A stretch of 64,000 bases of DNA, taken from Escherichia coli. GTDB taxonomy: Bacteria > Pseudomonadota > Gammaproteobacteria > Enterobacterales > Enterobacteriaceae. The DNA lies in the NCBI RefSeq assembly GCF_048403405.1, contig NZ_CP183129.1; one strand, 5' to 3'. Of this stretch, positions 39,307-59,374 are shown piece after piece. The position numbers and the translations under genes are program-made. Below the pieces are notes generated by a model. It made no database searches. It saw nothing but the letters and a program-made list of their open reading frames with translations, and had not been told where the DNA came from. How positions within the stretch are numbered: position 1 is the stretch's first letter; every line of letters starts with the position of its first letter.

Positions 39307-39720
39307 TCATCCCAAAACTGCCGTACCCAGCCGACAGGTGCAGCAACGCCGCCCCTGTTCATCGAAAACAACAATTTCCCAACTCTGATTTTGCCGCCCA
39401 AGATGCAGCGGCTGGCAGACGCCACGTACCTTGCCTTCAGACACCGGGCGATGATGGGTGGCGTTAAGTTCTGTGCCCACCACACACTGTCCGTCGCGGG
39501 TCATCATAAATCCGGCCATCGATCCCAACGTTTCCGCCAGCGCCGCCGACGCGCCGCCATGTAGCAGGCCAAACGGCTGATGAGTACGGGTATCAACCGG
39601 CATTTCGGCTTCCAGCACATCATCGCCCAGACGGGTATACACAATTCCCAGATGCGCCACCATTGTGTTATCGCTGGTGGCGTTCAGCTCGTCGAGCGTT
39701 AAATGGCGTTTCCAGATCAT
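39307..39720 (-). CDS. entH: Proofreading thioesterase of enterobactin synthesis (hotdog fold)
   Basis: 137-aa ORF; last gene of entCEBAH. Confidence 0.9.
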
Positions 39721-39722
39721 GC

Positions 39723-40469
39723 TTATGCCCCCAGCGTAGAGCCGCCATCTACCACAATATCCTGTAGGGTGATATGGCTGGCGAGATCAGAGGCGAGGAA
39801 CAAAATCGTGTTGGCGATCTCTTGTGGACGGGCGATTTTCCCCAGCGGAATGCCGAGTTTAAACTGCTCGCCAAAGCCGCGAATACGCTGCTCTTCGGCG
39901 TCATCGCTTACCCACAGCGTGCGTTGCATATCGGTGTCGGTGGAGCCTGGCGAAACCACATTACAGCGCACCCCGCTACCCGCCAGTTCCAGCCCAACGC
40001 TCAACGCCAGGCTTTTCAGCGCCGCTTTCGACGCGCCATAAGCACTCATACCAATGCGCGGCGTGTGTGCGGCGTCGGACGCAACAGTAACAATCGCCCC
40101 GCCCCGCTGACGGCGAAACTGGTTCATGGTCTGCTGGAACAGGTTAAACGCACCACCGACATTGACCGCAAAAGTCTGCTGCCAGTCCTCCTTACTGAGC
40201 TGATCGGTCGCGCCCATGCGCAAAATTCCCGCCGCATTGACCAGCACGTCCAGTCGCTCCGTTTCAGCTAACAGTCGCTGACATACCTGCGCCACCTGCG
40301 CAGCATCGGCAACATCCATCACTTCGGTCGCAAAGGGATATTGCTCCTGAGCGAACGCTTGATCAAAACCAGTGACTTTCGCTCCCGCCTCAACAAACGC
40401 CAGCGCCGTGGCGTAGCCGATACCTTTCCCTGCGCCAGTTACCCAGACATTTTTACCGCTGAAATCCAT
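39723..40469 (-). CDS. entA: 2,3-dihydro-2,3-dihydroxybenzoate dehydrogenase (SDR)
   Basis: 248 aa from [18 protein letters not shown]... (Rossmann motif); start overlaps entB stop. Confidence 0.9.
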
Positions 40470-41326
40470 TATTTCACCTCGCGGGAAAGTAGCTTCCACC
40501 AGGCGTCGATGGTCGGGTTTTTCGCCAGCATGACAAAGTCGATATCGCCATGCACTTTGCGCCAGCGCGCCGCCAGCGCCATCATGCGCACCGAATCCAG
40601 ACCGTAGTCGATCAGGTTGTCGTCATCGAACGGTTCATCGGACTCGTCCAGCAACGGCAGGATCACCTCACGCAGCGCCGCTTTGCTGGCGGGGATAGGT
40701 GCTGGCAGTAATTCTTCGGTCATCACCACCCGGCCAGAACGTCCGGCCACATATTTCAGCGACATCAAATGCTCGTCACGGCTGAAATCGGCCAGCGCAT
40801 CTGCCACCATAAACGGTTTAATATCGCGCATAAATGCGTCGGTTGCGGTGGTCATACAGCCAATGTGGGCATATACCCCGGTAATAATCAGCTGGTTACG
40901 TCCACTCTCTTTCAGCATTTGCTCCAGCGGGGAACGATGAAACGCGCTGTAGCGCCACTTCACCAGCACCGTGTCGTCGGCATCTGGCGTCAGGCTATCC
41001 ACCACCTTTTGCTGTTCCGGCGAACGGGTCAGGCCAGGCCCCCACATATCATTCAACAGCGCCCGATCTTCATCGCTCTGCTCTTTCGGCTGGGCGGTGT
41101 AATAAACCGGGATATTGTGCTGTTTGCAGTAGTCGCGTAGTGCCGCAATATTCGCGATCACCTGCTCCATCATCGGGCAGTTCTCGCCCCAGAAGCTGAC
41201 AAAATAGTCCTGCATATCATGGATTAACAACGCGGCACGTTGCGGTTCAAAGGCCCAGTCGACTTTATTCTGCGGAATATCGTGAGACTCCGGCAGTGCG
41301 TAAGCCTGTAATTTTGGAATAGCCAT
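40469..41326 (-). CDS. entB: Isochorismatase / aryl carrier protein EntB
   Basis: 285-aa ORF; isochorismatase domain plus C-terminal carrier domain (GLDSV). Confidence 0.95.
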   Translation of the reverse strand: MAIPKLQAYALPESHDIPQNKVDWAFEPQRAALLIHDMQDYFVSFWGENCPMMEQVIANIAALRDYCKQHNIPVYYTAQPKEQSDEDRALLNDMWGPGLTRSPEQQKVVDSLTPDADDTVLVKWRYSAFHRSPLEQMLKESGRNQLIITGVYAHIGCMTTATDAFMRDIKPFMVADALADFSRDEHLMSLKYVAGRSGRVVMTEELLPAPIPASKAALREVILPLLDESDEPFDDDNLIDYGLDSVRMMALAARWRKVHGDIDFVMLAKNPTIDAWWKLLSREVK

Positions 41327-41339
41327 CGTGTTCTCTCCT

Positions 41340-58579: not shown

Positions 58580-58618
58580 TGCTAACGTCAGATTGTTGAC
58601 AAAGTGCGCGTAGTTCAT

Positions 58619-58716
58619 GCCGGATGCGGCGTGAACGCCTTATCCGGCCTACAAAAATCTTGCCAATTCAATATATTGCAGGACCACGTAGGCCTGATAA
58701 GCGTAGCGCATCAGGC
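58619..58716. repeat. REP / BIME element (two inverted REP units) in fepA-entD spacer
   Basis: GCCGGATGCGGCGTGAACGCCTTATCCGGCCTAC and inverted GTAGGCCTGATAAGCGTAGCGCATCAGGC. Confidence 0.7.
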
Positions 58717-58753
58717 AGTTTTGCGTTTGTCATCAGTCTCTAATATGGTCGAC

Positions 58754-59374
58754 ATGAAAACTACGCATACCGCCCTCCCCTTTGCCGGAAATACGCTGCA
58801 TTTTGTTAAGTTCGATCCGGCGAGTTTTTGTGAGCAGGATTTACTCTGGCTGCCACACTACGCGCAACTGCAACACGCTGGACGTAAACGTAAAACAGAG
58901 CATTTAGCCGGACGGATCGCTGCAGTTTATGCGCTGCGGGAATATGGCTATAAATGTGTGCCCGCAATCGGCGAGCTACGCCAACCTGTGTGGCCTGCGG
59001 GGGTATACGGCAGTATTAGCCACTGTGGGGCTACGGCATTAGCCGTGGTATCTCGTCAACCGATTGGCATTGATATTGAAGAAATTTTTTCTGCGCAAAC
59101 AGCGGCAGAATTGACAGACAACATTATTACACCAGCAGAACACGAGCGACTCGCAGAATGCGGTTTAACCTTTTCTCTGGCGCTGACACTGGCATTTTCC
59201 GCCAAAGAGAGCGCATTTAAGGCAAGCAAGATACAGGCCGCTCAAGGTTTTCTGGATTATCAGATAATTAGCTGGAATAAACAGCAGATCATCATTCGAC
59301 TAGAGGATGAGCAGTTTGCTGTGCACTGGCAGATAAAAGAAAAAATAGTCATAACGCTGTGCCAACACGATTAA
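58754..59374 (+). CDS. entD: 4'-phosphopantetheinyl transferase EntD
   Basis: 206 aa from MKTTHTALPF...; upstream part of the 256-aa ORF overlaps the REP region. Confidence 0.85.
   Translation: MKTTHTALPFAGNTLHFVKFDPASFCEQDLLWLPHYAQLQHAGRKRKTEHLAGRIAAVYALREYGYKCVPAIGELRQPVWPAGVYGSISHCGATALAVVSRQPIGIDIEEIFSAQTAAELTDNIITPAEHERLAECGLTFSLALTLAFSAKESAFKASKIQAAQGFLDYQIISWNKQQIIIRLEDEQFAVHWQIKEKIVITLCQHD

Follow-up and report, generated by a model that had tools for sequence, protein, structure and literature searches.

The closest described counterpart of the locus considered here is the chromosomal enterobactin (ent-fep-fes) cluster of Escherichia coli K-12 MG1655 (b0583-b0597, NC_000913.3 609459-629713), for which both the chemistry of the siderophore pathway and its repression by Fur are established. 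Its control regions have also been mapped, DNase I footprints being available in K-12 for fepA-fes, fepB, entC and fepD-entS (PMC2189734, Table 3), and gel shifts were reported at these Fur sites along with the footprints (PMC2189734). A further point of reference is the EntF-YbdZ complex, deposited as PDB 5JA1 (PMC10510592). The locus compared with these systems occupies positions 39307-59374 of the window, that is, of the whole 64,000-nucleotide stretch of E. coli DNA that was analysed. With a probability of roughly 0.97, it is the canonical chromosomal enterobactin cluster of E. coli in a sequence-intact form.

The window itself shows which genes are present, that they are intact and to which families they belong, as well as the sequences of the operators and the ATGA overlaps. 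The cluster is bordered by cstA on one side and by hokE on the other (hokE/ybdK), its genes follow the K-12 order around three divergent control regions, and elsewhere the window, which extends from nadD to ybdK, consists of ordinary core chromosome of E. coli. When complete E. coli genomes were searched by megablast, the locus matched strain MS 69-1 (NZ_CP146675.1, human colon) over its full length at 100% identity. The RefSeq annotation of this record places entH-entA-entB-entE-entC, entS and wzz(fepE)-entF-ybdZ-fes on the minus strand and fepB, fepD-fepG-fepC and fepA-entD on the plus strand, with gene names that agree with the canonical cluster. Of 5426 genomes, 5425 gave a match, and in 5411 of them a single place accounted for at least 80% of the query. 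The enterobactin locus is thus an already known system that is core to the species, and an earlier sequence-only reading of the DNA was right to call its own finding descriptive rather than novel. Identity over the locus reached at least 99% in just 32 of the 5478 matching records, most of which fell between 95 and 99%; this ent-region allele therefore represents a lineage of E. coli that is relatively uncommon in the set of complete genomes.

The biosynthesis set (entC, entE, entB, entA, entH, entF, entD and ybdZ) is present at full length, with the following genes and, where given, profile scores and their cut-offs:

39307-39720, minus strand: entH, proofreading thioesterase, 137 amino acids (aa), no aa differences from K-12; NF007607, 315 bits (cut-off 237)
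39723-40469, minus strand: entA, 2,3-dihydro-2,3-dihydroxybenzoate dehydrogenase, 248 aa, start sharing one base with the entB stop; NCBIfam match
40469-41326, minus strand: entB, isochorismatase and aryl carrier protein, 285 aa, one aa differing from K-12; PF00857 and PF00550, GLDSV carrier serine kept
41340-42950, minus strand: entE, 2,3-dihydroxybenzoate-AMP ligase, 536 aa; NF008192, 1036 bits (cut-off 783)
42960-44135, minus strand: entC, isochorismate synthase, 391 aa; NF011591, 863 bits (cut-off 624)
50795-54676, minus strand: entF, nonribosomal peptide synthetase (NRPS) of condensation-adenylation-thiolation-thioesterase (C-A-T-TE) type, 1293 aa, GGHSL and GYSLG serines; NF007605, 2807 bits (cut-off 2400)
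54673-54891, minus strand: ybdZ, MbtH-like protein, 72 aa; PF03621, 77 bits (cut-off 27)
58754-59374, plus strand: entD, phosphopantetheinyl transferase, 206 aa, GIDIE and FSAKESAFK motifs; NF007604, 417 bits (cut-off 169)

The export, uptake and release set (entS, fepA, fepB, fepD, fepG, fepC and fes) is likewise complete and full length, and fepE lies among these genes:

44324-45280, plus strand: fepB, periplasmic ferric-enterobactin binding protein, 318 aa, GTG start, K-12 length; NF008200, 518 bits
45284-46534, minus strand: entS, major facilitator superfamily enterobactin exporter, 416 aa; NF007792, 716 bits
46645-47649, plus strand: fepD, ATP-binding cassette (ABC) permease, 334 aa; NCBIfam match
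47646-48638, plus strand: fepG, ABC permease, 330 aa; NCBIfam match
48635-49450, plus strand: fepC, ABC ATPase, 271 aa; NCBIfam match
49447-50580, minus strand: fepE, 377 aa, regulator of O-antigen chain length of the Wzz type; NF007699 ('LPS O-antigen length regulator Wzz(fepE)'), 617 bits
54894-56096, minus strand: fes, enterochelin esterase, 400 aa, GTG start, K-12 length; NF007758, 703 bits
56339-58579, plus strand: fepA, TonB-dependent ferric-enterobactin receptor, 746 aa, DTIVV TonB box; NF010048, 1280 bits

On re-translation of the window, all 16 frames proved to be a multiple of three, to start with ATG or GTG, to end with a stop codon and to contain no internal stops, and each of the encoded proteins is exactly as long as its K-12 MG1655 counterpart. 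The claim of the sequence-only reading that all expected ent and fep genes have full-length frames is therefore upheld, and neither a frameshift nor a premature stop, on the absence of which that claim had been staked, was found in any of the 16 genes. Curated NCBIfam equivalog or subfamily cut-offs were passed by 14 of the 16 proteins (EntH, EntA, EntE, EntC, FepB, EntS, FepD, FepG, FepC, FepE, EntF, Fes, FepA and EntD), and the remaining two, EntB and YbdZ, passed Pfam gathering scores (Isochorismatase and PP-binding for the former, MbtH for the latter). The domains of EntF, in the order PF00668 (Condensation), PF00501 (AMP-binding), PF00550 (PP-binding) and PF00975 (Thioesterase), are those of an NRPS termination module. 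YbdZ shows the features of an MbtH-like protein, namely a size of about 70 aa, a match to the MbtH profile and a gene directly upstream of the NRPS gene entF, and it matches chain B of PDB 5JA1 along its full length (E=2e-47). The exception to this picture is FepE, which the earlier reading had counted among the enterobactin genes; its profile is the equivalog for the Wzz(fepE) O-antigen length regulator, and it is position alone that places fepE in the locus, the gene being outside the enterobactin pathway.

Comparison with K-12 revealed from 0 (EntH) to 33 (EntF) aa substitutions per protein and per-gene nucleotide identities from 93.4% (entD) to 98.6% (entB). The ratio of nonsynonymous to synonymous substitution rates (dN/dS) lies between 0 and 0.13 for 13 genes and reaches 0.26 in ybdZ, 0.28 in fepE and 0.34 in entD, and this range (0-0.34 over all 16 genes) points to purifying selection. 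GLDSV, GGHSL, GYSLG, GIDIE, FSAKESAFK and DTIVV are functional motifs, and in the window the carrier and catalytic motifs of EntB, EntF and EntD as well as the TonB box of FepA are unchanged. The statement that the siderophore system is intact can thus be kept at the level of sequence, production being something that intact frames do not prove.

Several gene junctions are equally well preserved. The stop codon of ybdZ overlaps the entF start in GGAGGCACAATGAGC (ATGA at 54676-54673, minus strand), that of fepD overlaps the fepG start in GCGCATGATT (ATGA at 47646-47649), and that of fepG overlaps the fepC start in AAAAATGACC (ATGA at 48635-48638), so that the 4-nucleotide (nt) overlaps previously described as ATGA coupling of ybdZ/entF and fepD/fepG/fepC are read directly from the sequence at all three junctions. 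Such overlaps are the usual arrangement of translationally coupled operon neighbours, and coupling of these pairs is accordingly putative. At further junctions, which the earlier reading did not mention, one base is common to the entB stop and the entA start (TAATG at 40469), 2-nt gaps separate entA from entH and fes from ybdZ, the convergent stop codons of fepC and fepE overlap as a TTAA palindrome (49447-49450), and the convergent fepB and entS genes are 3 nt apart.

Fur operators were sought by scanning both strands of the window with the 19-bp consensus GATAATGATAATCATTATC, and the best match in each spacer was compared with those obtained in 2000 dinucleotide-preserving shuffles of that spacer. 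K-12 footprint coordinates were carried from NC_000913.2 to NC_000913.3 with an offset of +777, a value supported by the centring of the mapped stretches on Fur boxes. The following operators, none assigned to a strand, were delimited in this way:

44141-44189: entC-side Fur operator, best 19-mer at 44165-44183 with 4 mismatches; 49 nt identical to the K-12 entC footprint
44274-44298: fepB-side Fur operator, best 19-mer at 44280-44298 with 4 mismatches; identical to the K-12 fepB footprint (31 nt) over its first 23 nt (44274-44296)
46595-46663: entS/fepD Fur operator, 19-mers at 46608-46626 and 46614-46632 with 3-4 mismatches; agrees with the K-12 fepD-entS footprint at 68 of 69 nt
56141-56188: fes/fepA Fur operator, best 19-mer GCAAATGCAAATAGTTATC at 56161-56179 with 6 mismatches; 48 nt identical to the K-12 fepA-fes footprint

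All matches with at most 4 mismatches in the 64 kb lie in the entC/fepB or the entS/fepD spacer. The best match in the former (4 mismatches) was equalled in 4 of 2000 shuffles and that in the latter (3 mismatches) in none of 2000, both beyond chance, and the two entS/fepD 19-mers overlap in the 6-nt phase typical of Fur sites. The operators coincide with experimentally protected DNA, their sequences being identical or near-identical to the K-12 footprints. Fur-like matches with 6 mismatches at 50487-50511, inside fepE, and at 50783-50801, at the entF stop, were considered as a possible fourth operator and rejected, since matches of this quality are at chance level. At the fepD side, an in-frame ATG at 46633, four codons upstream of the annotated start (46645), directly abuts the Fur box (GATAATTAATTTCATTATC followed by ATG), and the operator therefore occupies the fepD leader or the beginning of the gene and not a promoter, a position also noted for this cluster in K-12 work (PMC2189734).

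The one conspicuous departure from K-12 within these control regions concerns the entC/fepB spacer, which measures 188 bp here (44136-44323) and 374 bp in K-12. The alignment runs perfectly for 161 nt from the entC side, is interrupted by the 186 extra bases of K-12 (between window positions 44296 and 44297; 20539-20724 in the K-12 comparison sequence), and resumes for the last 27 nt before fepB. The additional K-12 segment, which includes two GC-rich arms of 41 nt in inverted orientation, lies in the fepB 5' leader and lengthens it about five-fold. In 2755 of 5426 genomes, the long form found in K-12 is matched over at least 80% of the query, the others matching just the first 161 nt, like the window. 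The element is a dispersed repeat, and its presence or absence in the fepB leader is a common polymorphism. It is a putative 'boxC'-like element; a BoxC family does exist in E. coli. The core fepB-side 19-mer has 4 mismatches in K-12 and in the window alike. That the short leader acts as a natural regulatory allele is conceivable but unlikely; if it did, Fur occupancy or the stability or translation of the fepB mRNA may change, and ferric-enterobactin uptake would be tuned between lineages. A search of the available literature library for the fepB leader polymorphism turned up no relevant work.

Some of these observations call for caution about an intact canonical cluster. The best fes/fepA match departs from the consensus at 6 of 19 positions and was equalled in 137 of 2000 shuffles; EntD, the most diverged protein of the locus (93.4% nucleotide identity, dN/dS 0.34), differs from K-12 at 19 of 206 aa; and the 186-bp indel relative to K-12 begins inside the K-12 fepB footprint, among its final 8 nt, which is why only 23 of the 31 footprint nt are shared. 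Shuffles do as well often enough that the fes/fepA box is not significant on the consensus alone. Together with the comparable matches seen within fepG and fepE and at the stop codon of entF, this would fit the view that the iron boxes arose by chance in AT-rich promoter DNA and are not Fur operators. That view is extremely improbable in light of the shuffle results for entS/fepD and entC/fepB, the confinement of all the better matches in 64 kb to these two spacers, and the coincidence of the sequences with K-12 DNase I footprints and gel shifts (PMC2189734). The fes/fepA site is a putative operator by virtue of its identity to footprinted K-12 sequence, not of its consensus match. Consequently, the proposal of the sequence-only reading that iron boxes lie in all three divergent spacers holds beyond chance for entC/fepB and entS/fepD, and for fes/fepA it is weak on consensus and footprint-identical to K-12.

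The divergence of EntD, the 33 substitutions in EntF and an entC/fepB spacer 186 bp shorter than that of K-12 could also mean that the cluster looks intact and is nevertheless functionally impaired in this lineage, either by a missense change (e.g., in EntD or EntF) or by the altered fepB leader. This is very unlikely, as every dN/dS value is well below 1, the GIDIE and FSAKESAFK motifs of EntD, the GLDSV serine of EntB and the GGHSL and GYSLG serines of EntF are unchanged, EntD exceeds its profile cut-off (169 bits) with a score of 417 bits, and the short fepB leader, shared by about half of the 5426 E. coli genomes, is therefore a common natural allele. The aa changes in EntD are concentrated in its C-terminal third and leave the phosphopantetheinyl transferase motifs unaffected. 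No feature of the sequence counts against assigning the locus to the canonical enterobactin cluster.

By analogy with K-12, pathway chemistry, Fur binding and actual translational coupling may be expected to operate at this cluster as follows. EntC, the isochorismatase domain of EntB and EntA would convert chorismate to 2,3-dihydroxybenzoate, which EntE would adenylate and load onto the aryl carrier domain of EntB. EntF (C-A-T-TE), with the help of the MbtH-like YbdZ, would activate serine and then condense and cyclotrimerise the product, EntD priming both carrier domains and EntH acting in proofreading. Enterobactin would be exported by EntS, and its ferric complex would be re-imported by the TonB-dependent FepA, FepB and FepDGC and hydrolysed by Fes, thereby releasing iron. 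Under plentiful iron, Fe2+-Fur would bind its operators at fes/fepA, entC/fepB and entS/fepD, the three bidirectional control regions, and repress six transcription units.

Besides genes and operators, the locus and its flank contain several other features:

50747-50779, minus strand: strong intrinsic-terminator-like hairpin with a 13-bp stem and a T run just past the entF stop, identical in K-12
58613-58695, no strand assigned: pair of repetitive extragenic palindromic (REP)-type palindromes in the fepA-entD spacer, near-identical in K-12; Rfam ES036/CssrF, 42 bits (above gathering), and naRNA4, 38 bits (below)
59496-59648, minus strand: hokE, open reading frame (ORF) downstream of entD
59720-61162: insertion sequence IS150, 1443 bp, lying 71 bp upstream of the hokE start; target duplication of 3 bp (GGG)
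61086-61241, minus strand: sok, Rfam match beside IS150

A generic consensus scan gave 14 sigma-70 promoters against 12.2 in shuffles and 24 terminators against 19.6; since these counts were judged no higher than those of the shuffles, the scan was not used to place promoters, and only the 13-bp-stem hairpin after entF was noted. Rfam searches of the whole window (gathering level) and of 39000-62000 (E<=0.1) revealed no unexpected RNA in the locus, just the sok match beside IS150 and the REP-derived ES036 and naRNA4 matches, which probably reflect mere similarity to REP sequences or bacterial interspersed mosaic elements (BIMEs). Likewise, Fur-box-like similarity aside, a repeat search across the locus gave nothing beyond short pairs of low identity that are compatible with chance. 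The IS150 copy is inserted in a stretch homologous to K-12 sokE and splits the hokE ORF from its upstream leader/promoter region; the identical junction was found in 551 of 5426 genomes. Beyond the locus, gathering-level Rfam matches comprise a cspA-type thermoregulator leader upstream of cspE (12952-13394, minus strand), an rnk leader upstream of rnk (26379-26487, plus strand) and STnc70 between ahpC and dsbG (30292-30385, minus strand).

In sum, a human-colon E. coli strain carries the core catecholate siderophore system of its species, with undamaged genes and conserved Fur operators. This result serves as a sanity check of the window and as a baseline for the other iron-uptake systems of the strain, and its significance beyond annotation is small. 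Mildly useful by-products are two lineage-level polymorphisms beside well-studied regulatory DNA, i.e., the repeat element of the fepB leader and IS150 in hokE/sokE.

Set beside the known systems, the cluster agrees with that of K-12 MG1655 in its 16 genes and in their order, orientation and protein lengths, and the two share the ATGA and TAATG overlaps, the entF terminator and the fepA-entD REP pair. The fes/fepA and entS/fepD spacers have the K-12 length with one substitution each, and the K-12 Fur footprints are kept at 100% for fepA-fes (48 nt) and entC (49 nt), at 68 of 69 nt for fepD-entS and at 23 of 31 nt for fepB. Downstream of entD, K-12 MG1655 carries IS186B between entD and hokE, whereas here this element is absent and IS150 is found upstream of hokE instead, the neighbouring hokE/sokE being disrupted by IS150 and not by IS186. 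With respect to the EntF-YbdZ complex (PDB 5JA1), YbdZ is 2 aa away from the K-12 protein, and EntF has the same C-A-T-TE architecture with its substitutions conservative or scattered, the pair showing otherwise no notable difference.

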